Positions 12,208-64,000 of a stretch of 64,000 nucleotides of DNA are shown here, one piece after another. How positions within the stretch are numbered: position 1 is the stretch's first letter; each line of letters opens with the position of its first letter. The notes below the pieces were generated by a model. That model was not told where the DNA came from. It ran no database searches and saw nothing but the letters and a program-made list of their open reading frames with translations. A program made the translations under genes and the position numbers. The DNA is taken from positions 32,001-96,000 of the forward strand of contig OY970332.1 in NCBI GenBank assembly GCA_963717435.1, written 5' to 3'. Origin of the DNA: an uncultured bacterium. GTDB lineage: Bacteria; Babelota; Babeliae; Babelales; Babelaceae.

Positions 12208-12309
12208 CGCTCGTGGTGAGTGCCCGGCACCCTTCGATACATTTTTCTCACTCTGTTCGAAAAACACTCAGGGCGAGCGCGGGATCGAGTGACGGGTGTA
12301 TCGAACCAT
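12208..12309 (+). repeat. Palindromic element, outer copy, containing a nested inverted copy
   Basis: CGCTCGTGGTGAGTGCCCG...CGGGTGTATCGAACCAT; ends match the 15851 copy. Confidence 0.85.
12230..12279 (-). repeat. Palindromic element, inner nested copy
   Basis: Minus strand reads CGCTCGCCCTGAGTGTTTTTCGAACAGAGTGAGAAAAATGTATCGAAGGG. Confidence 0.9.
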
Positions 12310-12327
12310 AAAAAAATTACTTTTCGG

Positions 12328-13416
12328 TTAAGCTCTAATTCTATCACTACTATCGATAATATTATCTTGCATGTCCATAGAAATTGTAACAGATTTTTTG
12401 GAACTTAAATTAAGTTTATTTAACTCAGCTTTTTGCAACTGAAAGTTTGCGTGGGGTCGATAGTAAACTATTTTATTTCTCATGTCTATCGCACTTGTCC
12501 AAAGTGTAAACTCACTAGTAGTTGACGTGCCAGACTTATCAATAACTGAACCTAACGGGATATCGAAATTATTGAGTATACGAAACGCGTGATAAACTGC
12601 ATCAAGTTCTGTTTTTAATTTAGGTGCGGACTGACTAAAATAAACTGCGCGAACAAATCTTGAAGGTGGCGTAAAATCTCCCGGAAGACCCAGCATACCC
12701 GAACCCTGACCCAACTGCGAAATAGTGACCCCGCCCAAAACTTTGCTTTTTGAATTTATTGGCGAAAGATTTATGTAATTTCTCAAATTTGTCATGTGCC
12801 AATCAAAGCCCGGAGAATTTGTTATAACCCCAAGTGGATTATCATGAATATTAAGTTTGCCGTTAATATATTCTATAACTATAGATTTTCCATAACTATC
12901 ATGAACAATCAAATGGGCCGGTGGATTTTCTCCCATCCCAGGAAATTCTGTTTTTGAAACATATATTTTTTTAAGTTCTTTTTTTACTTCTTCTGTTGTT
13001 TTAAAACTTGTTAAGATCCAAGTTAATAATGACCACATCGGGATAGATTTACTGTAATTTTCTACTGTTACATCTTGATATTGCGCAAAATCTGGGAAAT
13101 AAAATAATCCACCAGCCAGACCTGCGCTGTTTACACCGTCAACAAAGTTTTCTGAATCGAATGCATTTATTCCCAGCACCGGATATTTCGATGTCCATTT
13201 TAGGCCCTGCGGCTTTTGATCGGGAGATATTGCGACTAGATTATAATTTTTCGGTACAAATAAAATTTTTGATTTCAAATCGAGCCCAAATTCTAAAGTA
13301 CGCGCGTAAATACAGCTATTATTTGTAGTTTTTAGCAAAATCCCAGTACAAGCAAATATATTTGTAAACAAACTCGAAACTAAAAAAGCATAAAAAATAT
13401 TTTTGATTTTTTTCAT
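12328..13416 (-). CDS. Choloylglycine hydrolase / penicillin V acylase family (peptidase C59) with signal peptide
   Basis: Catalytic Cys directly after the leader (FA-CTGI), ARTLEF, DGVNSAGL, ITNSP, GLPGDFTPPSRFVR. Confidence 0.92.
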   Translation of the reverse strand: MKKIKNIFYAFLVSSLFTNIFACTGILLKTTNNSCIYARTLEFGLDLKSKILFVPKNYNLVAISPDQKPQGLKWTSKYPVLGINAFDSENFVDGVNSAGLAGGLFYFPDFAQYQDVTVENYSKSIPMWSLLTWILTSFKTTEEVKKELKKIYVSKTEFPGMGENPPAHLIVHDSYGKSIVIEYINGKLNIHDNPLGVITNSPGFDWHMTNLRNYINLSPINSKSKVLGGVTISQLGQGSGMLGLPGDFTPPSRFVRAVYFSQSAPKLKTELDAVYHAFRILNNFDIPLGSVIDKSGTSTTSEFTLWTSAIDMRNKIVYYRPHANFQLQKAELNKLNLSSKKSVTISMDMQDNIIDSSDRIRA

Positions 13417-13562
13417 AAAACTCCCAGATTTATTAAAATTAAATTTTGTTAACTAAAAAATATATATTTATCAAGATAACTGCAACAGTTTTTACTTTAA
13501 AGATTTGTAGGTTTATAATTATTAGTAGTTAAAATATTAATAATCGAAAGAGAAATAACAAT

Positions 13563-14495
13563 ATGTCAAAATTAACAACACTTCTGAAAAATATATTTTT
13601 TATATTACTTATATTACAGTTTACGCCCCCTATAATTCAAAACTTGATAGACAGATATAACAAGCTTTATGAGAACAAAACCCAAGTTGGCGTTATCGAA
13701 ATTAAGGGCGGGCTATACAGCGCCAAAAAACATGTAAAGCATATAAAAGAGTTTTTTGAAAACAAAGACATAAAAGCGATACTTTTAAAAGTTGAATGCC
13801 CAGGCGGCGCGGCAGGAACATCGCAGGCGATATATAGCGAAATTCTGGCGCTAAAAGAAAAAAATGGCACAAAGCCTGTTGTTGCACTTGTTGAAAATAT
13901 ATGCGCATCTGGTGGATATTACGTTGCGGCAGCTGCCGATTATATTGTTGCAAGCCCTTCGGCTATGGTTGGAAGTATAGGCGTTTATATAGCGCACCCG
14001 CAGTTTAAAGATTTTATTGAACAGTTTAAAGTTAAGTATACAGTAACAAAATCTGGTTTATATAAAACTGCAGGTGACCCACTGACAGAACTTACAGACG
14101 AAGCAAAAGCAATGTTCCAGAATTTAACAAACGACGTTTACAATCAGTTTGTTAACGACATAAAAGCAAGAAGATCTAAGCTTGCTGCAATAGATGAAAA
14201 ATCATGGGCAGAGGGACGAGTATTTACAGGCAACGAGGCATTTAGGCTTGGCTTAATAGATGAAGTCGGATCTTATAGCAATGCAGTGAAAGCAATAAAA
14301 GACAAAGCTATAATTGAAGGCGAAATCGAATGGGTAAAACCACCGAAGAAGAGCAATATTTGGAAAGTATTGGTTGGCGATGATGAAAATGGTGGTGAGA
14401 CAAAATCTCTTAGTGATAGATTTATCTCAAGTCTGGTAAATAAGTTTATTAATCAGTCTGGAGCTGAAGAGACATCGCCACGTTGTAATATATAA
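13563..14495 (+). CDS. sppA: Signal peptide peptidase A (peptidase S49)
   Basis: CPGG, CASGGYYVAAAADYI, VGSIGV, GLYK, GRVFTG.EA..LGLIDEVG. Confidence 0.93.
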   Translation: MSKLTTLLKNIFFILLILQFTPPIIQNLIDRYNKLYENKTQVGVIEIKGGLYSAKKHVKHIKEFFENKDIKAILLKVECPGGAAGTSQAIYSEILALKEKNGTKPVVALVENICASGGYYVAAAADYIVASPSAMVGSIGVYIAHPQFKDFIEQFKVKYTVTKSGLYKTAGDPLTELTDEAKAMFQNLTNDVYNQFVNDIKARRSKLAAIDEKSWAEGRVFTGNEAFRLGLIDEVGSYSNAVKAIKDKAIIEGEIEWVKPPKKSNIWKVLVGDDENGGETKSLSDRFISSLVNKFINQSGAEETSPRCNI

Positions 14496-15283
14496 CAGTA
14501 ATCTATTTTTGAAAGTTCTATTTCGGGCTCGACGGTAATTAAGTAATTTAAGCCGGAGAGCCTGAAATCTTTTATTTTGCCCAACGAAAACCCCTGCGGA
14601 AAAACTGTCCCTTCACCAGAAGATACAACTGAATCACCTATATTTATTTTTTCAAGATGGCTCACAAAATTAAGATTTATATTTTTAGAGTCGCCGTAGC
14701 CCTCACAAATACCCTTAGCGCTTGTGTTATTTGGGCTGATCACTAGCGCAGACACTTTGCAAAATTTATCGGTAATTAAAGTAACTTTGGACCAGTTTGG
14801 GTAAACTTCTGTTATTTTGCCGATTAAGAAATTTTTATATACAACTGCCATATCTGGCTCTATCCCAGATTTGCTGCCCAAGGAGACTAGAAAAAATTGG
14901 GAGTTCTCAGAAAAATTTTTTTGAATAATTTGCGATAATTTAAAGTTTAAATTTGTATATTGCTTTGAAAAATCTATAATCTCTCTTGTTTGTTCAACAA
15001 AACTTAGTGTAGATTTTAATGCGATATTTTCGTTTTTTAAAGTCCCACACTCTTGAATATATTGCTCAAGCTCATGGACAAGCTCTCTATAATTTTTTTT
15101 ACGCTCAAAATAAGAAGTTATAGATCCAGAAATTTTATTTTGAATAACAATAAATGGATATGCAAAATTTGAAGCTATATTTTTTAGCGAAGATAAATCA
15201 GAAAATCTAGACGCAATTAAAATAAAAAAGAGCGCTGATACTAAAATTAAATAATTCAGCGCTCTTTTATTAACTATCTCCAT
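14453..15283 (-). CDS. mreC: Rod shape-determining protein MreC
   Basis: N-terminal TM, coiled coil, GSKSGI..DMAV, LIGKITEV, GDSVVSSG...FPQG. Confidence 0.9.
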   Translation of the reverse strand: MEIVNKRALNYLILVSALFFILIASRFSDLSSLKNIASNFAYPFIVIQNKISGSITSYFERKKNYRELVHELEQYIQECGTLKNENIALKSTLSFVEQTREIIDFSKQYTNLNFKLSQIIQKNFSENSQFFLVSLGSKSGIEPDMAVVYKNFLIGKITEVYPNWSKVTLITDKFCKVSALVISPNNTSAKGICEGYGDSKNINLNFVSHLEKINIGDSVVSSGEGTVFPQGFSLGKIKDFRLSGLNYLITVEPEIELSKIDYCYILQRGDVSSAPD

Positions 15284-15313
15284 AATTTATTTATTACTTT
15301 AAATATTTATAAT

Positions 15314-15796
15314 TTAAAATGGAAGCTCATCTTCAAATGGGGGCTCGTCTTTAAACGCAGCTGCACCAGCCGCAGAATTACTGCCAACTCCTGACAAACT
15401 AGAAGCGCCTGAGAAGCTCTCAGAATCTAGCGTTGCACCAGAAGTTCTATCAGCTTGTGCACCATTACCTGAGCCCAAGAAAACAACTTTATCTGCAACA
15501 ATGGAGTGCTTGCTGCGCGCTACGCCATCATTATCTTTCCAATTGCCAAATTTTAGATGACCTTCCACAAGAACCGGTTTACCTTTTTGCAGATACTGCT
15601 TGCAGCTTTCTGCCTGTGCGCCCCAAACGTCGACGTCTATAAAACAAACTTCTTGGACCATTGCGCCCGTTTGTCTATTCTTAAATTGCCTATTTGCTGC
15701 GACGCCAAGTCTGCATACTTGACCGTTACCTAGCTGCTTTAACTCCGGATCTCTTGTAAGATTTCCTATCATGATGATACGGTTATACCCCGCCAT
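15314..15796 (-). CDS. ssb: Single-stranded DNA-binding protein
   Basis: NRIIMIGNLTRDPE, KGKPVLVEG, C-terminal DELPF. Confidence 0.97.
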   Translation of the reverse strand: MAGYNRIIMIGNLTRDPELKQLGNGQVCRLGVAANRQFKNRQTGAMVQEVCFIDVDVWGAQAESCKQYLQKGKPVLVEGHLKFGNWKDNDGVARSKHSIVADKVVFLGSGNGAQADRTSGATLDSESFSGASSLSGVGSNSAAGAAAFKDEPPFEDELPF

Positions 15797-15850
15797 TTTG
15801 GACCTTTCAGTATTTACTAAAGTTATTTATTAATTTTTTGTAATTTTTTA

Positions 15851-15896
15851 CCCGCTCGTGGTGAGTGTTTTTGCGTAGAAAAAATGTATCGAACAT
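15851..15896 (+). repeat. Palindromic element, shortened copy upstream of ssb
   Basis: CCCGCTCGTGGTGAGTGTTTTT...AAAAAATGTATCGAAC. Confidence 0.85.
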
Positions 15897-15935
15897 AAAA
15901 AATTTTCTTGATAATTAAAAAAATATACTTAAAAA

Positions 15936-16381: not shown

Positions 16382-17019
16382 AATTTGAAACCCTTGTAAC
16401 CAATATGTAGATATTGCAAGAACGAACTGACAACAAGAAGTATAACAACAAAAAATAGTAACGAGTAGGTTTTTACTGGGGCCCAGTTAAAAAACATGCA
16501 CAAAAATATCCAGTTAATAAAAACAGACTGTGCAAATGTTGTGAATTTGCCAAAAAATGTTGGCTTGACGGGAATTAAACTAGCAAAAATCCCAAGATAA
16601 GAGATTCCTAAAAGTATAGAAAGTTCCCGAAATAGCACAAAATAAACAAACCATAACGGGATCTTCAAAAATGGAATTTTTATAAAAGCCAAAGTTGCAT
16701 AACATGAGACCATTAAAATTTTGTCGGCAATTGGATCAAGACATGCGCCCAAAAAAGTTTCTTGATTAAGTAATCTTGCAAAAAGACCATCAAGAAGATC
16801 TGTTAGCATCGCTATAAAAAAAATTATTGAGGCAAGCCCCCAATAACCAAACAACATGGCGCCGATAACTACTGGCGTTAAAATTATTCTTAATAAAGTA
16901 AATAACGTGGCTATAGTAATTTCACGAGTTATTTCCTGTGTTTTTTCTCTAGAAGTTATATTTCTAGCAAGTTTTTTAAAAATATTAATTAACAACTTAT
17001 TACTCCTGATCCCAAACAA
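16354..17019 (-). CDS. pgsA: CDP-alcohol phosphatidyltransferase (PgsA-like); true start probably downstream of 17019
   Basis: TDLLDGLFARLLNQETFLGACLDPIADK signature; multiple TMs. Confidence 0.85.
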   Translation of the reverse strand: MFGIRSNKLLINIFKKLARNITSREKTQEITREITIATLFTLLRIILTPVVIGAMLFGYWGLASIIFFIAMLTDLLDGLFARLLNQETFLGACLDPIADKILMVSCYATLAFIKIPFLKIPLWFVYFVLFRELSILLGISYLGIFASLIPVKPTFFGKFTTFAQSVFINWIFLCMFFNWAPVKTYSLLFFVVILLVVSSFLQYLHIGYKGFKLWFAKDSYR

Positions 17020-18068
17020 ATTTCACCGTCATATAGTACCGCAAACTGTCCAGGACTTATGCCTTGATCATGACTGGAAAGTTTTAACTCTAGGCGCCCA
17101 TTCCCAAATTTATAATATTACATGATGTATTTTGACTCGCCATGTCTTAATTTGACAAAAAATTGCTTAACTTCGCCAGACTCTTTTAATATAGGGTCGC
17201 CCGAGATCCAATTGCAGTTTTCAATAATCAGACTATCACGTTGCATATTACCCGTGTAATAGTTTCGGGATATAAATACAGTATTTGTGTCAGTATTCTT
17301 GCTAACTACATACCAGGGGCCACCTGAAAGACCTGTTCCTTGGCGCTGGCCTATAGTATAAAACCAGAAGCCTTTATGGGTGCCCAACTTTTTCCCAGTT
17401 TCGAATTCGACCAAATCCCCAACTTTTTCACCAACATGAAATTTAATAAATTCTGAGTATTTTAGTTTACCCAAGAAACATATCCCCTGACTATCTTTTC
17501 TGTTTTTTGTTGGCAAATCAAACTGATTTGCAAGCTCCCGCAGTTCGGGCTTTGTTAAATGCCCTATAGGAAATAACGCACGAGATAACTGATCTTGGCT
17601 CAAACGGGCTAAAAAATAGGTCTGATCTTTTATCAAATCCGGGGATGTTTTTAGGTAAAATTTATTATCTTGCTCGATAACTTGGGCATAATGGCCAGTC
17701 GCAATCTTGTCAAAATTTTCATTTAATTCTGATATCTTCTCATAAAACGCGCCAAACTTTATGTGCTGGTTGCATAAAATATCGGGGTTTGGGGTACGTC
17801 CCGCTTTAATTTCTGCAATAACATAAGATACTATTCTGTCATGGTACTCTTTTTGAAGTGAAACCACTTCTAGCGGCACACCCAATTTTTCGCATACAGC
17901 AGTAACATAGCTAAGATCTTCCTGCCATGGGCAGTCACCCAAATAGGCAAGCTCGTCTTCGAGCCATATCTTCAAATAGAATGCTTTTACGTCATGTCCC
18001 TGATCTTTTAGTAGCTTTAAAGCTACCGAGCTGTCAACCCCACCAGAGACCAATACCGCTATTTTCAT
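16989..18068 (-). CDS. mnmA: tRNA 2-thiouridylase MnmA, interrupted by an in-frame TAA at 17118-17120
   Basis: SGGVDS, GRTPNPDILCN, ATGHY, KDQTYFL, KDSQGICF; the same frame resumes after the stop with ...DQGISPGQFAVLYDGEICLGSGVISC*. Confidence 0.92.
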
Positions 18069-18219
18069 GAGTTTTAAATTTTATTATTTAAGTAGTTTTT
18101 AAGCTTATTTATCACATTTTAGCATGTTTTAATTAGTTTGTAATTAATCTGTAATGGCTGGCAATTTAAATTACTACTGCTAAAATAGTATTAATAAAAT
18201 TTAATATTACGAGAAACTC

Positions 18220-19948
18220 ATGTCAGAAAAAAATATTATAGAATCGGTCCAGCAAAGCTTATTAGAACATATACAAAACAAGTTTAATCTGGACAAAATT
18301 CACCTGAAAAACATAGAAATTACCCTGTCAACTGATGCGACAAAGCAGCAGTTTGGGGATATTACCACTAATGCAGCCATGGTTCTTGCAAAAGTTATTG
18401 GAAAAAATCCACGTGAAATAGCTGCAAATATAGTAGATTTTAAGCATGAATATATAGAGAAAGCTGAAATAGCAGGTCCTGGGTTTATTAACCTGTTTTT
18501 GACAACTCTGGCTATACAGAAGCTTGCTCAACAGATTTACCTGGAAAAAGACAGTTTTTTTAGCGGCCCGATAATCATCTCGAGAAACCCTATCGGGCAC
18601 TCCCAGGCTTCGCGTAAAGCTTCGCCGGACACGGCGGGACGAGCGGGAGAAAAACACAAAATTCGACTGCGAATTTGTAAGCGCAAATCCAACGGGCCCG
18701 CTGCACCTGGGCCATGGCCGCGGCGCGATTATAGGTGACGTTCTTGGTAATATTTCAAGATTTATAGGTAATAATTTTACCAAAGAATTTTATATTAACG
18801 ACGCGGGGAACCAGATTCAAAAGCTGGGAAATAGTTTTAAAATAAGATGCCAACAAGAATTAGGTGAAACTATAGAAATACCGGAAGACGGGTATCACGG
18901 TTCTTATCTTGTTGATTTGGCAAAAAAAGCGATACTCGAGTTTGGCAAAGATATTTTAAAAAAACCAGATAGCTGGTTCTCTAGTTATGCCAAAGAACTG
19001 ATGCTAGATAACATTAAGGGTACGCTAGAAGATTATGGCGTCTTTTTTGATGTCTGGTTCTCGGAGAAAACTCTACATGATAGCGGAGCAATAGAAAAAG
19101 CTTTAAACAAGCTTAAAGAAAACGGACATACTTACGAGTCTGAAGGTGCGGTCTGGTTCAGATCAACAACATTTGGTGATGATAAAGACAGGGTTCTTAA
19201 AAAAAATACTGGCGAATATACTTACGCTGCAGCCGATGTCGCATACACAGAAAATAAATTTTCTCGCGGCTTTGATAAGCTAATTATAATTTTGGGTCAA
19301 GATCATCACAGTTATTTGCAAAGACTTAAGGGAATAACTCAGGCTCTTGGACATAACCCTGATAATTATGACGTAATTTTGTATCAGCTTGTTACGCTGA
19401 AAGAGTCTGGCGCCGTGCTTAGAATGTCAAAACGTGCAGGACGCGGGATCACACTTCAGGATGTTATAGATGAAGTTGGCAAAGACGTAGCAAGATTCTT
19501 CTATCTAAACAGAAAAGCTGATGCACATTTAGAATTTGATATAGACCTGGCTCTAAAACATACTGACGAAAATCCGGTTTATTATATTCAATATGCGTAT
19601 GTTAGAACAAAAAGTATCTTAGAAAAATCTCTTGATATTAAAGATCTTAATAATATCACAGAACAAGATATAGAGCTTATCGGTGCTCAAGATGCAATTT
19701 TGATAAAAAAAATAACGCATCTAAAAACACTTTTAAATTCTATAGCGACAAATTATCAAACACATTTATTGACATATTATTGTCTGGATCTTGCCCAAGC
19801 TTTTCATGCGTATTATAGCGCAAACCGGGTTATTGACGAGAATAATATTAAATCTAGCAGATCAAGATTATTAATTATAAAAATAGTTAATGAAAATCTA
19901 AAGCGTTGCTTTAAATTATTGGGCATCGAAGCTCCCGAAAAAATGTAA
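18220..19948 (+). CDS. argS: Arginine--tRNA ligase, frameshifted within an inserted palindromic element
   Basis: N-domain FGDITTNAAM..AK and IAGPGFIN in frame 1; EFVSANPTGPLHLGHGRGA from 18671, RMSKR, NPVYYIQYAYVR and APEKM in frame 2. Confidence 0.93.
18566..18648 (-). repeat. Truncated composite palindromic element inside argS
   Basis: Plus strand GCCCGATA...TATCGGG-CACTC-[33 bp insert]-GGGACGAGCGGGA; CACTCGGGACGAGCGG is the family end. Confidence 0.8.
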
Positions 19949-20041
19949 AATTGTATTAATCTATTGCAATTACTAGCCAGAATGTGACACCATTAAATAG
20001 GTAGGTAAAATTTAACTTATTATTTAATCTTGAGGTGGTCC

Positions 20042-23828: not shown

Positions 23829-24602
23829 ATGCGAAAATTCACAAACTTTGCAGTATTATTTTTGAGCCTATTTTTTATGCCAAATTACTGCATGGAATCC
23901 AGCAATCAGCAAGTTAGCATAAATATCCCAGCTGATATCTTAAAGTATATTATCGAACAGTACTTAATTAATCTTGAAAATCATCCCGAAGATATCTTTA
24001 AAAATGCGATTGCTCTTTCCAGAACAAACAAACAATTTAATACACTAGTTAAAGAAGTTATTAGCAAGATTATTAAAAAAGCAAAATATGTAAATATACA
24101 AGATTTTATAAAAGCAGCACAAATTCAAGAAGAAGCAGCTTATGAGAATCTAAAAGCTTCTGCTATTAGCTCAAATAACAATAACCCAGACGCTTTATTT
24201 GCTCTGAAATTTTGGAAAAAAATCGAGCTTGAAGATAAATACAAGAACAAAAATATAATTTCTAATGCCAGATTGCTTTTAAATCTAAGGAGCAATTTCT
24301 GGGCGACTGACTACTACGGCAAAGACGCAGAACTTAAAAGCATAATCTTGGAAATACTCAAAGAAGAAAGCTTAGACGAACGCACCGTTAAATGGCTCAG
24401 TGAAATCAATCACACTCTGAGAGACGCGATATTCAAAATTTTAGAATCACAAAATAACGAAAAATTTCAAAATTTTGTGGCAGCATACGTTTTCCAAAGA
24501 CGCTGTGGTCTAACCCTCCTGGGTTTCATAGCACTTATTTATGTGGGCGTGGCCGCTGTAGGTGTAATAAATGAAATAATTAAACAAAATCATCTGTACT
24601 AA
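23829..24602 (+). CDS. Secreted F-box-like protein with C-terminal TM (paralog of 26448..27236)
   Basis: Signal peptide YC-MES; NIPADILKYIIEQYL...LSRTNKQFNTLV; C-terminal hydrophobic anchor. Confidence 0.7.
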   Translation: MRKFTNFAVLFLSLFFMPNYCMESSNQQVSINIPADILKYIIEQYLINLENHPEDIFKNAIALSRTNKQFNTLVKEVISKIIKKAKYVNIQDFIKAAQIQEEAAYENLKASAISSNNNNPDALFALKFWKKIELEDKYKNKNIISNARLLLNLRSNFWATDYYGKDAELKSIILEILKEESLDERTVKWLSEINHTLRDAIFKILESQNNEKFQNFVAAYVFQRRCGLTLLGFIALIYVGVAAVGVINEIIKQNHLY

Positions 24603-24616
24603 ACTTTTTTTAAAAT

Positions 24617-26296
24617 CTAAACTTTTGTCCTGCTAGCGGGCTTTCTCAAACTCAACTTTGATATTTGTTTGTTACCGGTACCAGTTAAAATATTTTCAAT
24701 ATTAACAAATTTTTTATCGCGTGCTAAATCTAAAGCAGTTTCGCCACCTTCATCCTTTAAGCTCAAATCGGCACCTTTATCTTTTAAAAGCTGAACAATA
24801 TCTTTTGAACCTGTAAGAACTGCCAAATGCAAAGGTGTTCGTTTATATGGCCCAACCAAATTCACATCGGCGCCAGATTTGAGTAATATATCAATTATTT
24901 CTTTATTTTTTGAAACTACGGCCAACGGCAATGGCGCACTCAACTTTATTTTATCGGTAATTTTATTATTAAGATTGGCACCGTTTTGTATGAGAAGCCC
25001 TAGCATTTCTGTATTCGGGCTTAAAACGACTATACAAACGGGCGCTAGCCCAGATTTATCTATGGTATTAACGTTAGCTTTGTATTTGGATATAATATCT
25101 TTTGCCAATGGATAATTCTTTGCGGCAAGGGCAACTGCCAATGGAGTTCTTCCTTCTTTATCGGCAAAGTTTACATCCGCGCCCAACTTCACAAGCTTAT
25201 CAAATAAATCTTGGCTCCCAGCTTCTGCCACATATATCAAATGGGTTTTTCCATTTTTGTCATCGTATATATTTGGATAATTTAAAGTTGCATCACGATC
25301 CATAACTAATGACTTATTAAGAAAAAATTTGATTGCCTCAAAACTATTTACAAAATCAAAAGGCGTCTGGCCGCCATTACTTTTTGCATTTAAATCAGCG
25401 CCGGCGAACAATAACAGTCTTATAATATACGGGTCAAAATTTTCAGCGGCCTCGTGCAATGGCGTATATCCATACTTATCAACGGCCTTAACATTTGCAT
25501 GGTGCCTAACAAAAAAAAGTGCCCAATCCCTACTTTTTAGTTTAGCTGCGATATGTAATGGGGTCTCCCCTTGTGTGTTTTTTGCCTCTAGGCGACCGGC
25601 TGAAACCATGTCTTCTGCTGATTCTAAAGTTTGATGCAATTGATCTATTTTTGAAAAATCTGGATTTTTTATCACTAAATTATGTAAAAATGAGTTCCCG
25701 GCTTTATCTTTAAGTGAAGCAGCTTCATCCTGTTTTTTAAGAGTATCTGCAAGTGACTTGTCTATGGGCTTATTAGCTATATATTTTATGTCTATCTGCC
25801 CACCCTTTGCCTGCTCCTCCATAAGTTTACTTTCATCTGATGCCTTCTTTAAAATTGGCTGATTTCTTTCGTAATCTGTCCTTTCGGGATTTTCATCAAC
25901 CCTATATCCGGCACTTGTGCTATGAATATAAAAACTTTTGTTTCCTAATTCAGGATCATTTGTATATCTATTGTTATAATCACCTATATCAATTTTTCCT
26001 ATACCGCAATATCCAGTTTCCACAGAAAATGATTGATGGGCAGCTAAATGTTTAGGATTGCCATACAAATAACTACAAGCCTCAAAAGCGCCTATTGGCG
26101 AAAGGTACGTGAACCAGTCACTCTGATCAGTCTGATCAAGCGTCTCTTGCGTAGCATTTGAGGCTATAAATGTGACATCAAATTCATGATCAGTTAAATT
26201 AGTAATATCGTATTGATAAGAAAACAAGTTTGTCGAAAAAAATAAAAGACAGCTATACGCATATATATTTAAATTTTTTTTCATAAAAAACCCCAA
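24617..26296 (-). CDS. Secreted multi-ankyrin-repeat protein
   Basis: Signal peptide; many ankyrin repeats (GETPLHIAA, GYTPLHEAA, GRTPLAVA, KRTPLHLAV, GETALDLA). Confidence 0.93.
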   Translation of the reverse strand: MGFFMKKNLNIYAYSCLLFFSTNLFSYQYDITNLTDHEFDVTFIASNATQETLDQTDQSDWFTYLSPIGAFEACSYLYGNPKHLAAHQSFSVETGYCGIGKIDIGDYNNRYTNDPELGNKSFYIHSTSAGYRVDENPERTDYERNQPILKKASDESKLMEEQAKGGQIDIKYIANKPIDKSLADTLKKQDEAASLKDKAGNSFLHNLVIKNPDFSKIDQLHQTLESAEDMVSAGRLEAKNTQGETPLHIAAKLKSRDWALFFVRHHANVKAVDKYGYTPLHEAAENFDPYIIRLLLFAGADLNAKSNGGQTPFDFVNSFEAIKFFLNKSLVMDRDATLNYPNIYDDKNGKTHLIYVAEAGSQDLFDKLVKLGADVNFADKEGRTPLAVALAAKNYPLAKDIISKYKANVNTIDKSGLAPVCIVVLSPNTEMLGLLIQNGANLNNKITDKIKLSAPLPLAVVSKNKEIIDILLKSGADVNLVGPYKRTPLHLAVLTGSKDIVQLLKDKGADLSLKDEGGETALDLARDKKFVNIENILTGTGNKQISKLSLRKPASRTKV

Positions 26297-26447
26297 TAAA
26301 AAAAATAATTTAGGATAACAAAACTATTTTAAAAAATTGGGACACGAATTATCAAGAATATTATTTACTAGTTTAAGCCCTAAGTTTATAATATATAAGT
26401 TTTTATTAGTATTTTTTTTATAACTTAATTACAATTAATAAGCACTT

Positions 26448-27236
26448 ATGCGAAAATTCACAAAGTTTGTAATATTAGTTTCGAGCCTCTTTTTTATGCC
26501 AAATTACTGCATGAAATATGTCCCCTTTGGGAAAAGAGCAAGCGCGCAGCAAAATACCTCTAATATCTTAAATATCCCAGCTGATATCTTAAAGTATATT
26601 ATCGAACAGTACTTAATTAATCTTGAAAAGCATCCCGAAGATTTTTTTAGAGATGCTATTGTGCTTTCCAGAACAAACAAACAATTTAATACACTAGTTA
26701 AAGAAATTATTAGCAAGATTATTAAAAAAGCAAAATATGTAAATATACAAGATTTTGTGAGAGCAGCACAAATTCAAGAAGAAGAAGCTTATGAGAAGAT
26801 AAAAGATTCTGCTATTAGCTCAAATAGCAACAACATTGATCCTTTATTTAATCTGAAATTTTGGAAAAAAATCGAGCTTGAACATAAATACAAGAACAAA
26901 AAGATAATTTCCGATGCCAGGTTATTTGTAAAAAAAACCGATTTGCAGCTGATCCTCTACGATGGGAAATCTGTAGAATTCGAAATTATACTTTCGAAAC
27001 TACTCAAAGAAGAAAATTTAGATGAGAGTACAGTTAAATGGCTCAGCAAAATTAATCAAATTTTTGAAGTTACTATATTCGAAATTTTAGAGTCCAAGGG
27101 TAATGTAAAATTTCAAAATTTAGTAAAAGAACGAAATTTCCGCAACAACTGTGATCCGATCATACTGTGTCGCATCGGAATTTTTTATATGTGCATTATG
27201 GGTGTAGCAATTATTATTGTACGTGGTATAGCTTAA
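26448..27236 (+). CDS. Secreted F-box-like protein with C-terminal TM (paralog of 23829..24602)
   Basis: Near-identical DNA to 23829 gene over the central-5' part. Confidence 0.7.
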   Translation: MRKFTKFVILVSSLFFMPNYCMKYVPFGKRASAQQNTSNILNIPADILKYIIEQYLINLEKHPEDFFRDAIVLSRTNKQFNTLVKEIISKIIKKAKYVNIQDFVRAAQIQEEEAYEKIKDSAISSNSNNIDPLFNLKFWKKIELEHKYKNKKIISDARLFVKKTDLQLILYDGKSVEFEIILSKLLKEENLDESTVKWLSKINQIFEVTIFEILESKGNVKFQNLVKERNFRNNCDPIILCRIGIFYMCIMGVAIIIVRGIA

Positions 27237-33465: not shown

Positions 33466-34359
33466 CTATTTTAGTTTAGCTTTTATATTATCTTTTATAT
33501 TATCGACGTCTAGTAAATTATAATCGCAAATATCTTCTATAAAAGCTGTTAGAGCAGCCTGCTTTATTTGCAAATTATCAAATCCGCGGGATTTTAAATA
33601 AAATTTTTGTTGCTCATTAATATTATAAACTGCAAACGCGTGCTTGCATTTTACGTCATTGTTTTTTATTTCAAGCGCAGGCACTGACAAGTTTTTCGCA
33701 TTATCGCCCAATATTAAAACCGTATCATGTTGAGAAGCATCAGAATTTTTAGCTTGATTATCGATTAAGATATTCCCCCAATATTTCCCCGAGCTCAAGC
33801 TACTTAAAATTCTCTTGGTTACTATAGAACTTTTGGTATTTTGTCCAATATGATTCTGAGAAGTTTTTATCGAGCAAGAACTGTTAATATCAGAATAAGA
33901 TAAAATTTTTAGGGCAAATTCAGAATTATTTTGCAATAAATTACAGTTAAATTCGATATTAATATTATTGGCGGAAGAAAAAACAAATGCATGTAATTTT
34001 GCCCCGAAATATAACTGCGCGTTAATAATAATATTAATATTATTGCTGTTAATATTATCTAGATTATCTAGATCTAGTTTAAATAGCAGCTCAGAGTTAT
34101 CTTGCAAATTTATGTCTATAGTAAAATCATAAGTTAAATTCTCGCCATTTTTACAAGAAACGTCTTTACCGGACCGCTCGTCCCGAGTGTTTTTCGATGG
34201 CAAAGCCGAGAAAAAAGTATCGAGGGATGGCGGCAACCCAAAAACATCTTGCGCAGTTAAGTTTATATTTTTTTTTGAAAAACTATCACAACTTATCCCA
34301 ATTTTATTATTAAGTTCTAGTTTATTATCCAACAGAGCCCTCCATTTCAAGTAGCACAA
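33466..34359 (-). CDS. sufD: Fe-S cluster assembly protein SufD (divergent; carries an in-frame palindromic insert)
   Basis: [49 protein letters not shown]; operon position. Confidence 0.88.
34174..34233 (+). repeat. Palindromic element inserted in frame in sufD
   Basis: CCGCTCGTCCCGAGTGTTTTTCGATGGCAAAGCCGAGAAAAAAGTATCGAGGGAT, translated from the minus strand as [18 protein letters not shown]. Confidence 0.92.
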
Positions 34360-38382: not shown

Positions 38383-39360
38383 TTAACTATTATACAGGTC
38401 ATAATCATCAGTCACAACTGAAATTCTTCGTCTTTTGGAAAAATTCTCAGGCAGTTCCTCAGCATTTCTCTTTTTGCCCACTGAGTTAAAAATTACATCC
38501 AAAAAGTCAAAGTCATAACCGGGACGAGTTTGACGCAACTTATTTTTAATAATGACCCCTAAATTTTCTGCTTCAGGATGTCCGTGCCGCTTGAAAATAT
38601 CAACTAATAACTTGACCAGACCAAAACAATTTTCGGGTAACGGGTTGGGCCACTCCAAAGTTCCACTTACAAAAAGTATAAATAATATATTTTTTATGTC
38701 TTGCGACCAAATAGAATTTACGATGACATAATCCTGATGATATCCGCCATTAATAATACTGCTATGCGTTAGTTGCCACTTCATAAATTTTAGGGCCAAA
38801 TCAAGATCGGCTTTGATTTGCACATCTCTGTCTTGACTTGAAAAAAGCGAATCCTGCAAACGATTTGTAGCTATAGTTCCAAAGCGCCTGTTGCTTATGG
38901 CGGCCAAAAACATTCCCATATAGCTACGTGCTTCGGCGGTTTTGTGGTTCGCATAGAATATATCTATTCTACAAACTGAATCTAAAAAGTTTTGCCAGTT
39001 GCCAAACAAAGTGGCATGCAATAAATCCTTGAGCGCCGGGTCAACTTTCGGTTGTCCCAAGTCTTCTTTTGAGTAACCACGGCATGCAGCTGCCGACAAA
39101 ATAGAAAATTCCTGGCTTAATTCACGTTGGGTCGAGTTGGAGAATTGGTCACTGTCCGATAGAGTTCCCTCTAACCTATAGCCTCTTGTGTTATCAAGAT
39201 TATTTCTGTCAACGCGGGCGCGAAAATCAGTTGGAACTCGGGCTAGCCAATAACTTAGCGCCTGATCATGTTCGCCGTCTATCATCGCAAAAACAGTACT
39301 CGTAAATATCGATATAAAAAAAGTTAATAATAATTTTGTAGAAATAAATTTTGTGTTCAT
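38383..39360 (-). CDS. Secreted putative effector with C-terminal bipartite NLS (paralog of 39378..40268)
   Basis: Start at ATG 39360 (MNTKFIS); leader ending FA-M; KKR-x10-KRRR. Confidence 0.75.
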   Translation of the reverse strand: MNTKFISTKLLLTFFISIFTSTVFAMIDGEHDQALSYWLARVPTDFRARVDRNNLDNTRGYRLEGTLSDSDQFSNSTQRELSQEFSILSAAACRGYSKEDLGQPKVDPALKDLLHATLFGNWQNFLDSVCRIDIFYANHKTAEARSYMGMFLAAISNRRFGTIATNRLQDSLFSSQDRDVQIKADLDLALKFMKWQLTHSSIINGGYHQDYVIVNSIWSQDIKNILFILFVSGTLEWPNPLPENCFGLVKLLVDIFKRHGHPEAENLGVIIKNKLRQTRPGYDFDFLDVIFNSVGKKRNAEELPENFSKRRRISVVTDDYDLYNS

Positions 39361-39377
39361 GAATAAATCTTTTTTGT

Positions 39378-40268
39378 TTAAAATGTTACAGTTTTTCGCC
39401 ATTTTTTTATCTTTTTATCCAGTAAGTCGAAGTTATGCTTTGGATGAATTTGGACCAACTTATTTTTAATAATGGCCCACAAGTTTTCTGTTTCAGAATA
39501 ATTGTAACTCTTGAAAATATTGGCCAATGCCTTGACGAGATCTAAGTAATTCTCAGGCAAATTGTGATTCACAAAAAGTATAAACAATATATTTTTTATA
39601 TCTTGCGACACGATAGAATTTACAATCACGTAATCCTGATGGCATCCGCCATTAATAATATTTCTATGCGTTAGTTGCCACTTCATAAATTTAACTGCCA
39701 GATCAAGATCAGCTTTGATTTGCGTTTCTCTGTCTTGCACCCCAAAAATCGGCTCAGGTAAAGAATTTATGGTTATAGTTCTAAAACGATTATTGCTTAC
39801 TGCGCTCAACAACATTCTTACGCAACTATGTTCTATTGGAGTTTGGTGAAGCGCAAATAACTTGTCCATATCAGAACAGGCCGAATCGAAATCTTCTTTA
39901 TTCAAATTAAATAAAATAGAATCTAATATATTTTTAATTTTTCCAGCTTCCAGCTGGTGAAAAAATTTTAAATAATTCTTGTTACAGCCTACATATGCTG
40001 CCAAAATGGTAAAAGCTCGCGTGAGCTCAAGTTGCATCGGTGTATATTCATCTGTGCCCTCATCTGAAAGTAATCCTATTAGCTTATACCCCCTAGTATT
40101 ATCAAGATTATCTAGGTCAACGCGCGAACGAAAATCCGCATCAACATGCTTCTCGTCTTGAGCAGAATTTGTGATTTTTGCGGGCAATGCCATAGCAAAA
40201 ATAGAACTACTAAATATTGACAGAAAACAAGAAAATAATAATTGTGTAGAAAGAAATTTTGTATTCAT
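39378..40268 (-). CDS. Secreted hypothetical protein (paralog of 38383..39360)
   Basis: Shared NLDNTRGY, QIKADLDLA.KFMKWQLTH, HQDYVIVNSI.SQDIKNILFILFV. Confidence 0.8.
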   Translation of the reverse strand: MNTKFLSTQLLFSCFLSIFSSSIFAMALPAKITNSAQDEKHVDADFRSRVDLDNLDNTRGYKLIGLLSDEGTDEYTPMQLELTRAFTILAAYVGCNKNYLKFFHQLEAGKIKNILDSILFNLNKEDFDSACSDMDKLFALHQTPIEHSCVRMLLSAVSNNRFRTITINSLPEPIFGVQDRETQIKADLDLAVKFMKWQLTHRNIINGGCHQDYVIVNSIVSQDIKNILFILFVNHNLPENYLDLVKALANIFKSYNYSETENLWAIIKNKLVQIHPKHNFDLLDKKIKKWRKTVTF

Positions 40269-42654: not shown

Positions 42655-42721
42655 TTGGCCGGATCCCTCGATACATTTTTCTTAGCTTCGCTTTCGAAAA
42701 ACACTCGGGACGAGCGGCCAA
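42655..42721 (-). repeat. Intergenic palindromic element
   Basis: Plus strand ATCCCTCGATACATTTTTC...GAAAAACACTCGGGACGAGCGG (42663-42717) closed by TTGGCCG/CGGCCAA. Confidence 0.92.
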
Positions 42722-55115: not shown

Positions 55116-55132
55116 ATTATTTGCCTTCTAGT

Positions 55133-56904: not shown

Positions 56905-56909
56905 ACTGC

Positions 56910-57533: not shown

Positions 57534-57562
57534 TGAATGACCTTTCTTTGCTATCTTCTGTT

Positions 57563-57883: not shown

Positions 57884-57885
57884 AA

Positions 57886-59076: not shown

Positions 59077-59106
59077 GTCATCTCCTAAGTGGAACTATTA
59101 TTTAAA

Positions 59107-61167
59107 CTATTTATTAACACTACCAAGAATTTGTTCTTGGACATTCTTTGCTACTTCTCTGTAGCATGCAAATTCCATGGAATAACTAGCGCGTCCTTTA
59201 GACATCGAACGCAGCTCAGTTGCGTAGCCAAACATTCTTTCAAGTGGAACTTCAGACTCAATAATCTGACTTCCATTTTTAGAATCCATGCTTAATATGC
59301 GGCCACGTCTTGCATTAAGATCACCTATCACATCACCCATATATTCTTCTGGCGTTTCAACTTCGACACGCATTATAGGCTCCAATAGAACCGGATCAGC
59401 TTTTGACATGGCAGCTCTAAATGCCATACCAGCTGCAATCTTAAATGCGATTTCAGAAGAGTCAACGTCGTGATACGACCCATCATAAACACTAGCTTTC
59501 ACGTCAACCACTGGATAACCACCCAATACACCGGTAGCAAGAGACTCTTCAAGTCCTTTTTCTACACCAGGTATATATTCTCTAGGAATGGTCCCTCCAA
59601 CGATATCGTTTTCAAACTCATAGCCTTTTCCTCTTTCAAGGGGCTCTAGCTTGATCCAGACGTGTCCATACTGTCCATGACCACCAGACTGACGGATAAA
59701 TTTACCCTCGGCTTGTGCAGGCTTTTGAATCGTTTCCTTAAAAGCAACTTGCAGCTTTCCTTGTGTCAATTCAACCTTATGCTCACGTTTCAATCTATCA
59801 ACGATAATTTCAAGATGAAGTTCTCCCATCCCTGAAATAACCGTCTGACTTGTTTCTTTATTATAAGAAAAATGAAATGACGGATCTTCTTGCATCATTT
59901 TACGCAATGCAATGGTCATCTTGTCATAATCATTTTTTGTTTTCGGTTCAACAGAAGAGTGAATAACTGGAACCGGTATATCGATTTTTTCAAGAATAAT
60001 TTTATTCTTTTCATCACAAAGAGTATCACCGGTTGTAGCTTCTTTAACTCCAACTATAGCTCCGATATCTCCAGCTTTTAATTCTTGAATTTCTTCTTTT
60101 TTGTTTGCATGAAGCTTAATAAGACGGCTTACGCGCTCAGTTACGTTTCTTGTAGCATTATAAACATAAGATCCAGATTTAATTGTACCTGAATAAACTC
60201 TTATGAAACTTAACACACCAACAAACGGGTCTGTCATAATCTTAAATACTAATGCAGAAAACGGTGCTTCAGGATCAGCTTTTCTTGACTGAAGTTTATC
60301 AACACTTTCTATAGGCGGAATATCTAATGGAGACGGCAAGTAATCAACAACCGCGTCCAACAATAATTGCACGCCCTTATTTTTGAAAGCAGATCCACAG
60401 AACGCAGGAGTTATTTTTCTATCAAGAACACCTTGGCGCAGAGCAGCTTTAATTTCAGGCAAAGATATAGGCTCTTCGTTTAAGAACTTTTCAGCTAAAG
60501 CGTCGTCAAGATCGCAAACTTTTTCTACAACCTTTAAGCGCATCTCTTTAGCTTGTTCTTTATATTCAGCAGGAATTTCTTGCCAAACAACTTTTGTGCC
60601 CTTATCGTCAACACTAAAAGTTGCCATTTTTTCAGTAAGCAGATCTATAATCGCTGCAAAATCTTCAGAAGCGCCAACAGGTATCTGCATAGCTATGGCA
60701 TTACCATTAAGCTTTGTATTAATATCTTTAACTACTTTAAAGTAATCAGCACCGATACGATCAAGCTTATTTACAAAAACAATTCTAGGAACTTTATATC
60801 TATTAGACTGTCTCCAAACGGTTTCTGATTGAGGCTGAACACTACCAACACCACAAAAAACAGCAACGAACCCATCAAGAACACGCAACGATCTTCCAAC
60901 CTCAATTGTAAAATCAACGTGACCCGGGGTATCGATTATATTTATATGATGACCAGCCCAGCTACATGTAACTGCAGCGGCCGTAATGGTAATACCTCTT
61001 TCACGCTCTTGTTCCATCCAGTCAGTAGTTGCCGCACCTTCATGAACTTCGCCAATCTTGTGCACCAAACCCGTATAGAATAGAATACGCTCTGTCAGGG
61101 TAGTTTTACCAGCATCAATATGAGCTGCGATACCTATATTTCTGTATTTTTCTAAACCGTTACTCAT
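59107..61167 (-). CDS. fusA: Elongation factor G
   Basis: [37 protein letters not shown]. Confidence 0.99.
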
Positions 61168-61193
61168 AAAGATTCCTTATATACCAAGAATAT

Positions 61194-61676
61194 TTACCAA
61201 GAATAATGAGAGAACGCTCTGTTAGCTTCTGCCATCTTATGAACATCTAATTTCTTTTTAACAGCAGAACCACGGCCCTCTGAAGCTTCTAAAAGCTCAT
61301 AACCTAATCTCAGTCCCATAGTTTTGTCTGATCTCTCTTTAGCGGCGCCGATAAGCCAACGCATAGCAAGAGCTCTACTTCTTCTTGCAGGAACTTCTGT
61401 AGGTATTTGATAAACACTACCACCCACACGTCTTGCTTTAACTTCTATAAATGGAGCTATTTGTTCAAGCGCTTTATTGAAAAGAGCCAAACCCTTTTCT
61501 TTATCGCCGCTAGACTTCTTTACCAACAAATCAATAGCATCATAAACTATTTCACGCGCAGCATTCTTTTTGCCGCGCCACATAACAACATTAATTAATT
61601 TTTGTACGGTCTCTGAGTTGTATACAGGATCTGTACCGATATCTCTTATAAAATTGACCGATTTACGTCTTGGCAT
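61194..61676 (-). CDS. rpsG: 30S ribosomal protein S7
   Basis: MPRR, RRVGGSVYQIP, HKMAEANRAFSHY. Confidence 0.98.
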   Translation of the reverse strand: MPRRKSVNFIRDIGTDPVYNSETVQKLINVVMWRGKKNAAREIVYDAIDLLVKKSSGDKEKGLALFNKALEQIAPFIEVKARRVGGSVYQIPTEVPARRSRALAMRWLIGAAKERSDKTMGLRLGYELLEASEGRGSAVKKKLDVHKMAEANRAFSHYSW

Positions 61677-61688
61677 CTAGTAACCTTC

Positions 61689-62066
61689 CTACTTTTTAGC
61701 TGGACGCTTAGCGCCATATCTTGAACGACCTTGTCTTCTCTTTTCAACACCAGCAGAGTCCAATGTACCGCGAATAATATGGTACTTTACCCCTGGAAGA
61801 TCGGGCACTCTTCCGCCTCTTACTAGAACAACGGAGTGTTCTTGAAGATTATGGCCTTCACCCGGAATATAAGCGGTAACTTCTATACCTGTAGAAAGCT
61901 TAACGCGGGCAACCTTTCTCAAAGCTGAGTTAGGCTTTTTAGGCGTTTGCGTGAATACTCTTGTGCATACGCCACGAGCTTGAGGAGAGCCTTTAAGAGC
62001 GGCGCTCTTAGATTTGTACTTAGGCTTTCTTCGTGGGCTACGAATCAACTGATTAACTGTGGGCAT
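61689..62066 (-). CDS. rpsL: 30S ribosomal protein S12
   Basis: [25 protein letters not shown]. Confidence 0.99.
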
Positions 62067-62173
62067 CGTAAAAAATCCCTGATTTATTATGTTTAAACAT
62101 TAATTTAATTTACACTAATTTCGTTATTGGCCAGAGATATTCCCTGAAAGACGTCATGATATGTCATGATATG

Positions 62174-62201
62174 ATTTTATCTTTTTTGTCGGAATTTTCA
62201 A
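62174..62201 (-). promoter_or_regulatory. Putative sigma70 promoter of the str operon
   Basis: Minus strand TTGAAA-16 nt-TAAAAT about 110 nt upstream of rpsL. Confidence 0.5.
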
Positions 62202-62356
62202 GTTGAAGCATTTAAGAAACTTAAGAAAACTTCGTTAAGAGGCTTTGTTTTCACAGCTTGCTTTACTTAAAATCTGGTATCTACTAAAATATTTCTGTAA
62301 TTAATTTTAACATATTTTCAAACAGATACAAATTTTATCTTACAAAAAGGACAATT

Positions 62357-63499
62357 ATGAACTATTTAAGCCAAATATTCTGTGGTTTCCAGGCCCCACT
62401 TTTTGTGGCAATAAGCCTACTTGGAATTGGTTTTCTTATCACCTTCCATGAACTTGGCCATTTTTTGTTCTGTAAGTTGTTTAATATAAAAACTCCCTCT
62501 TTTTCTATAGGCTTTGGTCCAAAACTACTAGAAAAAAAGATTGGCGAAACCACATTTTCACTTTCAGCTATACCCATGGGCGGATATGTTGAGATAGCCG
62601 GCGCGGCTGAACCCGGCCAAGGCGATCAGTCTCATGCAAATTCCAGAGCTCATGACTCTTTCGCTGTAAAGCCATATTATCAAAAAATGTTTGTAATATT
62701 TGGCGGTATTACTTTCAATCTATTTTTTGCACTTTTTGCCCTAAGCTGTCTATATTATTTTGGCATGCCCCAATCCCCACTTTTAGCTCTAAAACATGGC
62801 AAAACTATATTAAATAATATAACCCCAGGCTCTCCGGCAGAAAAAGCGGGCCTTAAATCCCAAGACAAAATAATCTCTATAAATAATAATAACCTAAATA
62901 ATAGCATCACAAACCTGCTCGCATCTGTCGCAAAGCTACCCAATCAAGAAGCAGAATTTCTAATCGAACGCAACGGACAAACTCAAAATATTAAAGTTCT
63001 TATAGGCGAACAACAACGTGGTAGCAAAAAAGTTGGCTACTTGGGGGTAGATTTTGTAATAGAAGATCTTAAAAATTTGGGTCTTATTAGTTCTATAAAA
63101 TCTGGAATTAGCTTAACCTGGTTTTTAGTTACTCAAACATTTATGTCTTTCAAGAACATGCTAGCTTCAAAAAGCGCCGACGGCGTATCTGGACCAATTG
63201 GGGTGGTGTCAAACATGTTCACGGCATGCAAACATGGCCTGGGGCAATTTTTACTTATTCTTGCCATGATTAGCATAGGTCTCGCTGTTTTAAATCTAAT
63301 TCCAATACCAATCTTAGATGGCGGCCAAGCACTTATTTATACAATAGAGGCTTTAATTAGAAGAGAATTGCCAGAAAACTTAAAGTATTACGTTCAACTT
63401 TCTTGCTGGCTCGCTTTTATCGCGCTGTTTTTGTTTATTTCTTACAAAGACCTGCTCGCACTTTTAAAGCCATATTTAACTAAATTTATGGGGCAGTAA
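62357..63499 (+). CDS. rseP: RIP metalloprotease RseP (M50 with PDZ)
   Basis: HELGH, FSIGFGP, IPMGGYV, GSPAEKAGL, NLIPIPILDGG. Confidence 0.96.
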   Translation: MNYLSQIFCGFQAPLFVAISLLGIGFLITFHELGHFLFCKLFNIKTPSFSIGFGPKLLEKKIGETTFSLSAIPMGGYVEIAGAAEPGQGDQSHANSRAHDSFAVKPYYQKMFVIFGGITFNLFFALFALSCLYYFGMPQSPLLALKHGKTILNNITPGSPAEKAGLKSQDKIISINNNNLNNSITNLLASVAKLPNQEAEFLIERNGQTQNIKVLIGEQQRGSKKVGYLGVDFVIEDLKNLGLISSIKSGISLTWFLVTQTFMSFKNMLASKSADGVSGPIGVVSNMFTACKHGLGQFLLILAMISIGLAVLNLIPIPILDGGQALIYTIEALIRRELPENLKYYVQLSCWLAFIALFLFISYKDLLALLKPYLTKFMGQ

Positions 63500-63534
63500 T
63501 TTAAAGCTAAAAAAATTTAGTAACATTCAACTTC

Positions 63535-63565
63535 AAAAATAGTGGGCAAATTACCCGCTATTTTT
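63535..63565. terminator. Bidirectional terminator between convergent rseP and pgi
   Basis: AAAAATAGTGGG-CAAATTA-CCCGCTATTTTT. Confidence 0.75.
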
Positions 63566-64000
63566 ATTTCAGTAATTTTCTTGTTTCGACTTTATACAAC
63601 TCAACTTGGGGCTGGTCAAACGGGTTAATATTTAATAATTTCGCAAGATATATAACTTCGAGCATTTTGAACTGCAAAAACTGCCCCAAATAATACTCTG
63701 ATATTTCGGGAAATATTATAGACACATACGGGCGCCCAGAATTTTTATAAGCATTACAGGTGCCTGTAAATATTGCGCCAAGAATATCACCTACTGATTT
63801 ATTTTGAATTTCTGGAACAAGTTTATTTAATTCAGGCAAGTCTGGGATATTAATATCAAGTCCCGCTTGATCCCTCGATACATTCTTCTCGCTCTTACAG
63901 AGCATCGAAGAACACTCGGGACGAGCGGGAGAAAAATCAACTTTATTCAAACAAAAACACCCTACTGATATAAAACTCGTAAACTTGTCATATGGGCCGC
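63564..64000 (-). CDS. pgi: Glucose-6-phosphate isomerase, 3' end (runs off the window)
   Basis: Frame is open to the window edge (GPYDKFTSFI...); C-terminal NPFDQPQVELYK. Confidence 0.88.
   Translation of the reverse strand, partial: GPYDKFTSFISVGCFCLNKVDFSPARPECSSMLCKSEKNVSRDQAGLDINIPDLPELNKLVPEIQNKSVGDILGAIFTGTCNAYKNSGRPYVSIIFPEISEYYLGQFLQFKMLEVIYLAKLLNINPFDQPQVELYKVETRKLLK
63861..63930 (-). repeat. Palindromic element inserted in frame in pgi
   Basis: Minus strand TCCCGCTCGTCCCGAGTGTTCTTCGATGCTCTGTAAGAGCGAGAAGAATGTATCGAGGGATCAAGCGGGA, read as PARPECSSMLCKSEKNVSRDQAG. Confidence 0.92.

Follow-up and report, generated by a model that had tools for sequence, protein, structure and literature searches.

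A dispersed hairpin repeat with in-frame intragenic copies, and a candidate GIY-YIG nuclease partner, in a genome of the family Babelaceae

Introduction

Which element has placed short GC-rich palindromes throughout the AT-rich DNA of an uncultured member of the Babelaceae (phylum Babelota), even inside its housekeeping genes, and which enzyme could act on it? The question is raised by a stretch of 64,000 nucleotides (contig OY970332.1 of GenBank assembly GCA_963717435.1, positions 32,001 to 96,000; hereafter the window), in which a sequence-only reading had noticed seven copies of such a palindrome. According to our analysis, this repeat is an oriented hairpin dispersed over the entire genome, with many copies kept in frame within conserved genes, and two copies bracket the gene of a small GIY-YIG nuclease, P0001. 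We consider it fairly probable that this nuclease recognizes the repeat, which resembles repetitive extragenic palindromic (REP) sequences, as a fold of single-stranded DNA, and that the repeat spreads by the route outlined below. The comparison with characterized systems on which this reading leans is given together with the alternatives.

Abundance and distribution of the repeat

The genome (G000) is a single contig (C1) of 1,198,203 bases with a G+C content of 34.6% and a completeness, estimated from marker genes, of 88.8%. A simple gene caller delineated 1,139 open reading frames (ORFs), which cover 88% of it. Copies of the repeat were detected by regular expressions and by nhmmer, with the reversed genome as control. 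The exact left half of the unit was found 103 times and the complete unit 110 times, compared with no complete unit in the reversed sequence. Together with 8 split and 4 partial copies this gives a total of 122, in which the copy in argS (described below) is not counted. An nhmmer profile of 103 units returned 117 matches, all of them known from the preceding counts, and no match in the reversed control. The guess, made from the window, that the repeat might be abundant genome-wide was thus correct. Copies occur over the whole chromosome at a density of 5–19 per 100 kb, with 67 in one orientation and 55 in the other relative to the origin indicated by GC skew. Only 38 of the 122 lie wholly within ORFs, though ORFs occupy most of the genome.

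Single copies without a gene, inward-facing pairs and nested forms are dispersed through the genome; there are 14 inward-facing pairs, one of which is the nuclease cassette. Of the 14 genomic matches to a 13-base motif, 10 are located on the 5' side of a copy, at a distance of about 40–55 bases (C1 positions 10868, 193704, 238575, 438246, 444057, 453111, 503750, 898012, 952722, and 1167903), mostly on inward-facing pairs, which also have common spacer sequence. The motif and the shared spacers suggest a larger composite unit. Furthermore, members of a second hairpin family are nested in the repeat, directly ahead of the left GAG in nine cases and directly ahead of the right GA in one (window 18603–18635; C1 positions 395948, 404139, 469611, 477126, 509297, 513645, 882093, 1098637, and 864285), and relatives carry other hairpins at these two positions. 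The second hairpin may mark a site where cutting or insertion is favored, or the composite may have been inherited.

Structure of the unit

The unit, 36–100 nt in length, consists of a 5' tag CGCTCR, four variable bases, GAG, TG, an inner hairpin, GTATCGA, another four variable bases, and a tail that starts with T. These blocks are those that had been described for the window copies; the four positions on each side that had appeared arbitrary, however, are mutually complementary. In 96 of 109 copies, picked without regard to pairing, the two variable blocks are reverse complements, whereas shuffling gave 35.8 ± 4.1 such copies and at most 51. Seven types of 4-bp stem occur, and G-T pairs account for 2 of 436 stem positions. 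From this covariation we infer that the invariant GA of the two arms is opposed as tandem G·A pairs. The inner stem of 6–7 bp also covaries and ends either in a loop of three bases or in a GNA/GNA internal loop followed by a further stem. The simple three-base loops have the form C-GNA-G in 15 of 16 copies, with all four middle bases represented. Among 90 distinct inner parts, CGNAG was found in 72 on the element strand, compared with 25 on the opposite strand, and loops of the UUCG or GNRA type were found in 8.

Loops of the C-GNA-G type are described as exceptionally stable in DNA in the passages of PMC3201870 consulted. Due to these loops, the bias of CGNAG towards the element strand and the near absence of G-T pairs, selection appears to act on the single-stranded DNA fold of one strand. 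The z-scores for DNA folding ranged from −2.3 to −4.1 for four single-copy folds and reached −0.9 for a nested fold; for these five folds, the folding program favored neither strand of the repeat.

The same features bear on a different explanation, in which the repeat is retained for its structure in RNA (as a terminator, a stabilizer or a regulatory hairpin) and its link to the nuclease is incidental. Tandem G·A pairs are known in RNA folds, too, and the distribution of the intergenic copies would suit an RNA-level role: 31 of 84 are located between convergent genes, compared with 73 of 600 gaps in total, and 10 of 84 between divergent genes, compared with 156 of 600. The scarcity of copies between divergent genes is also expected if insertions into promoters are purged, while the enrichment between convergent genes weighs against our reading. 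However, three-base GNA loops, stems with almost no G-T pairs, and the rarity of UUCG- and GNRA-type loops are not what a selected RNA hairpin would lead one to expect, and the intragenic copies occur on both strands and in all six frames (24 sense and 14 antisense). Moreover, no match to the repeat at the Rfam gathering score was present in the window, only weak chance matches were obtained in four loci, and the flanking described below is specific to one group of nucleases. We therefore regard a role as RNA as very unlikely.

Base conservation stops about 3 bases 5' of the tag and fades within about 6 bases 3' of the stem. No target-site duplication was detected at 73 single copies, where the longest flanking direct repeat measured 2.30, compared with 2.39 in permuted controls; at 14–20 nt, intragenic copies showed a slight, non-significant excess of flanking direct repeats. 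This agrees with the initial impression from the window that no duplication is obvious. Complementarity of the two flanks was 3.49, compared with 2.92 ± 0.10 in permuted controls, a slight difference that may reflect subfamilies.

In-frame insertions in conserved genes

The 38 intragenic copies are distributed over 33 ORFs, all of which are kept open; one of these merely extends the frame of the nuclease in the upstream direction, and another, a short one, is perhaps spurious. Pfam domains fitting pgi, recR, murB, gpsA, mnmG, mnmE, transketolase, valS, murE, murF, miaA, and others were found in 25 of 31 scanned hosts (host names are our reading of these domains; sufD was scanned separately). 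Comparison with orthologues revealed empty sites in nine genes: the segment is absent from 24 of 24 orthologues of mnmG, from 5 of 5 each of pgi, recR, mnmE, and murE, from 4 of 4 of miaA, from 2 of 2 of gpsA, from the 4 aligned of 5 for murB, and from the 23 informative of 24 fetched for argS. The orthologues of sufD were too divergent in alignment for the insertion to be sized. The segments are thus not a common inheritance carried by all orthologues, and the early suspicion of in-frame insertion into conserved genes holds for these genes. Judged from the orthologous sequences, the intragenic copies are recent and lineage-specific, and the empty sites point to mobility of the repeat. In mnmG of a repeat-rich relative (G018, locus L107), two extra residues are present where the gene studied here has its insertion.

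At sites with a single copy, the net gain is approximately 24–43 residues. In alignments of host proteins to solved structures, the matches break at the inserts; a single-sequence structure prediction for RecR had a mean pLDDT of 39.6.

The likeness in mode of insertion to Rickettsia palindromic elements (RPEs), which are in-frame palindromes in genes according to the part of PMC10969869 consulted, is well founded: in both cases, as far as the descriptions allow a comparison, palindromes are found in frame in unrelated metabolic genes of an intracellular bacterium with a small genome. The units described here are shorter than RPEs (36–100 nt compared with about 150), belong to another phylum, and have a candidate partner enzyme. 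Since the repeat is read in all six frames, it yields no single conserved peptide, unlike the RPEs.

A small GIY-YIG gene between inward-facing copies

Five GIY-YIG matches were found in the genome. One of them, P0001, is encoded at C1:1066108–1066392 (+), about 970 kb outside the window. A copy of the repeat lies upstream (1066027–1066078, +) and another, inverted, downstream (1066414–1066466, −), each with its 3' end towards the gene; a GIY-YIG nuclease flanked by copies was among the partners that the sequence-only reading had proposed to look for. P0001 consists of 94 aa with a single domain (PF01541, E = 1.3e-16) that includes Y7, Y17, and E64, and NCBIfam has no family-level name for it.

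To compare flanks, 70 loci of close homologues and 29 loci of more distant GIY-YIG proteins were kept; 9 duplicate loci, 5 partial or weak loci and L004, a frame of UvrC size, were left out of this count. With a perfect stem demanded, an inward-facing copy within 200 nt of the nuclease gene was detected in 56 of the 70 loci (on both sides in 35), compared with 1 of the 29. The value of 56 is a lower bound because several of the missed loci carry variant copies, recognizable by eye, that fail the stem requirement. SRM, the repeat of the Ssn nucleases, had the opposite distribution, being present in the flanks of none of the 70 loci and of 8 of the 29. The loci extend to Chloroflexota, Zixibacteria, Ignavibacteriota, Bacteroidota, and Alphaproteobacteria; in four of five such genomes from other phyla, the motif exceeded its reversed control, and the variants in these phyla have a GTCA-like tag. 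The initial view of a repeat not described for this lineage stands as regards Rfam, with the reservations that the repeat extends beyond the lineage and that systems of this kind are in print. Representatives of the P0001 type number 1,895 at E up to 1e-10, other GIY-YIG clades included.

The cassettes have little in common in their surroundings. Thirty cassettes from 30 genomes fell into 27 neighborhood groups, and a genome often has several cassettes; in Sphingomonas, the cassette is located between nrdR and an RNA methyltransferase gene. A Sphingomonas paeninsulae plasmid record (L239, 401–766) has a P0001-like gene between rnc and era with no recognizable copy flanking it.

The abundance of the repeat follows the nuclease. 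In a survey of 200 genomes of the phylum, at least 20 motif matches were present in 45 of the 63 genomes with a close homologue and in 15 of the 137 without one, and at least 50 matches in 31 of 63 and 2 of 137, respectively; kin among the surveyed genomes are not independent, so that statistical significance is overstated.

These data need to be set against two other explanations. In the first, the nuclease recognizes the repeat without spreading it, acting on single strands as a modulator of restriction or recombination in the manner of the Neisseria enzyme SsnA, and the spread is due to host recombination, template switching or another enzyme. The only effect demonstrated for SsnA, in the available portion of Chenal et al. 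(2025, PMC11893778), is a reduced integration of repeat-bearing DNA, and mobilization of repeats by SsnA itself is not demonstrated there. The 15 repeat-rich genomes without a close homologue would also fit, as would the mosaic and nested copies, which suggest recombination between copies, and the three other small GIY-YIG genes of the genome beside the second hairpin family. Against it stand the nearly unique neighborhoods of the cassette, which is often present several times per genome, and the close homologue carried by 31 of the 33 genomes with at least 50 matches. On balance, we consider this explanation, the strongest of the alternatives, unlikely, although it deserves to be taken seriously. 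As to the three additional genes themselves (L002, C1:1023036–1023248; L003, 413544–413759; L005, 200267–200425), one is truncated by a stop, and two are located just behind tRNA-like genes and the second hairpin family.

In the second explanation, a conventional insertion sequence with an HUH or DDE transposase has been lost from the genome, and the copies are the miniature elements that it left behind. The inward-facing pairs with common spacers and an outer motif do resemble deletion derivatives of a larger unit. The missing target duplication argues against this, as does the genome itself, in which no match to a Y1 transposase (PF01797) was found (DDE families were outside this search). 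Furthermore, at locus after locus the gene between the inward-facing copies is a GIY-YIG nuclease. A lost insertion sequence is thus highly improbable.

Relation to known systems

In the sections of Chenal et al. (2025, PMC11893778) available to us, SsnA is a protein of 94 aa that needs Y6, Y17, and E64, is encoded between its repeats, and cleaves single-stranded DNA in one strand only, a few bases to the 5' side of its hairpin; the Ssn cassettes are proposed there to be domesticated mobile elements. So far as this description goes, P0001 shares the length, the single GIY-YIG domain and the positions of the two tyrosines and the glutamate; its gene is likewise bracketed by a hairpin that has an orientation, a tag on the 5' side and a short tail on the 3' side, and whose abundance follows the nuclease gene. 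The repeats themselves are different. The SRM pattern has a single match in the genome, which overlaps no copy among the 122; unlike in SRM as described, tandem G·A pairs break the stem here, and the inner hairpins stacked on it vary in length. Approximately 30% of the copies are located in genes, compared with 2% for the NTS of Neisseria in the same source.

A careful tree of 38 proteins placed the SRM-flanked proteins in a clade (support 100/100) that does not include P0001; these proteins serve in the tree as a proxy for the cd10448 clade, SsnA itself not being among the sequences. The group of P0001, which appears in this tree as a grade, and the SRM-flanked group are jointly split from the YazA-type housekeeping proteins at 95/96. 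Six added loci, not counted among the 70 and 29, entered this second tree only; an earlier quick tree had 97 rows. The best PDB matches of P0001 are UPF0213 proteins (E = 1e-14), and the label "UPF0213-like" is weakened by the tree, in which P0001 is nearer to the SRM-flanked clade than to the YazA-type proteins. P0001 probably belongs to a group that is sister to the Ssn family.

In REP/RAYT systems (REPtrons and REPINs), the gene of the enzyme is flanked by its hairpins, and many single copies and dimers occur without a gene. The repeat described here has the same organization, with the difference that its enzyme is a GIY-YIG nuclease instead of a Y1 HUH transposase. The REPs named GTAG and CGTC also have intragenic copies, and no dedicated transposase was found for the latter according to the consulted parts of Di Nocera et al. 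(2013, PMC3733652). The CGTC families share the tagged hairpin with a tail, the dimers and the intragenic copies, and the GTCA-like tag of the variants in other phyla adds to the likeness; they differ, as described in that source, by perfect stems of 8–9 bp and loops of 4–5 bases. None of the intragenic CGTC peptides in its supplement S3 matched the peptides found here, the nearest being CGTC-2 of Sulfurovum. A literature search, whose scope left out most subscription papers, returned no account of this repeat or of this group of nucleases, and six 12-base motifs matched literature text only in papers on unrelated subjects.

Already known, then, from the portions of the reports at hand, are the Ssn nuclease/hairpin systems (PMC11893778) and the intragenic copies of REPs and RPEs (PMC3733652, PMC10969869). 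New here is a repeat outside the SRM pattern with a nuclease outside the SRM-flanked clade, combined with in-frame insertions of the Rickettsia style.

Proposed mechanism

Based on the analogy with SsnA, the nuclease would bind the hairpin on one strand and cut a few bases 5' of its tag. Where two copies face inward, one cut would be made on each side of the cassette, beyond its hairpins, and the two would lie in opposite strands. The host could then, by repair or recombination, paste fragments led by a hairpin elsewhere, with no fixed target and no duplication, which would give rise to single copies, nested forms and pairs of copies facing each other. At tolerant positions, insertions that preserve the frame would survive as the 24–43 extra residues, and others would be purged. 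The fold, the distribution, the empty sites and the association with the enzyme are observed, while binding, cutting and movement by P0001 are predicted by analogy. The term non-autonomous mobile repeat, chosen when only the window was known, accords with the empty orthologous sites and the nuclease gene flanked by copies, and its mobile part is to be understood as an interpretation.

Several observations, in addition to the enrichment between convergent genes and the missing demonstration of mobilization by SsnA, count against this mechanism. No strand-transfer step is known for a hydrolytic nuclease. The net insertions exceed the core of the repeat by about 20–45 nt, and neither a duplication nor a donor flank that would explain this excess was found; the search for donor flanks gave only short AT-rich matches or other copies of the repeat. 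The orthologues came from outside the genus, and the junctions could not be read at the level of single bases. Finally, 15 genomes reach at least 20 matches although no close homologue was found in them, and 12 of the genomes with a homologue remain below 10; incomplete assemblies and variants of the pattern account for some of these cases.

Going one step further, the unit of about 440 bp (hairpin, GIY-YIG gene, inverted hairpin) could be an autonomous mobile element without a transposase, whose nuclease reads a G·A-rich fold of single-stranded DNA and, with host repair, both mobilizes the cassette and places hairpins without a gene in coding DNA. We put this forward tentatively, as a possibility that we would not yet call probable. 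If the unit is mobile, it represents a distinct branch beside Ssn that extends across several phyla, and it would directly answer what moves RPE-like repeats into proteins. The mover of RPE-like and CGTC-type repeats is so far an open question in the parts of PMC3733652 and PMC11893778 consulted. The genome studied here has some 120 scattered hairpins, two of them around the gene of the candidate enzyme, and roughly 30 proteins altered by insertions, so that the question can be tested with a 94-aa protein and short oligonucleotides. If P0001 cuts as predicted, the targets of site-specific single-strand nucleases would come to include a new fold, whose 4-bp stem varies freely.

Copies in the window

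All seven copies reported for the window were recovered, with refined coordinates. The motif with up to two mismatches occurs 15 times in the window, compared with 3.4 expected, and none of 100 shuffles reached this number. Between two convergent genes, a copy of the TGGT/ACCA stem type (12208–12308, +) contains within its inner hairpin a second copy of the CCCT/AGGG type (12230–12279, −); this nested arrangement is found at four places in the genome. Upstream of ssb, an intergenic copy (15853–15892, +) has one base missing from its 3' arm, and the flanks of another (42664–42716, −) form an extra outer stem.

The remaining three copies are, as had been noticed, within sufD, pgi, and argS. The sufD copy (34175–34227, +) runs antisense to its host (33466–34359, −), keeps the frame and falls into the N-terminal region. 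The pgi copy (63871–63927, −) is in frame and sense, in a gene that runs past the end of the window. The argS copy (18576–18645, −) is antisense and out of frame as assembled. It had been thought to lack its second half; in fact, it has a right half, though a degenerate one, and its left half is split just before GAG by the second hairpin, 33 nt in length.

The host gene argS (18220–19948, +) is assembled in two frames, from 18220 to 18738 and then in a frame open from approximately 18577 to 19948. Its conserved anchors are 100 nt apart, i.e., a multiple of three plus one, and the frame shifts at the copy, whose inner loop has one base more than those of two sibling composite copies. The genome has only one argS match. 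An assembly error is the likeliest explanation, because mnmA and another gene also break with no repeat present. Three public DNA runs contained 5–9% of the words; none of the contigs from these runs spanned the argS copy. In mnmA (window 17000–17140, −), an early in-frame stop is followed by continuing C-terminal sequence, with no repeat nearby; this break is probably an assembly error. A further frameshift in a conserved gene is located at C1 position ~532500, among approximately 54 genes hit by proteins of relatives.

Apart from the repeat, the window contains three tandem pairs of paralogous genes of unassigned function, whose products have signal-peptide-like N-termini (6925–9727, 23829–27236, and 38383–40268).

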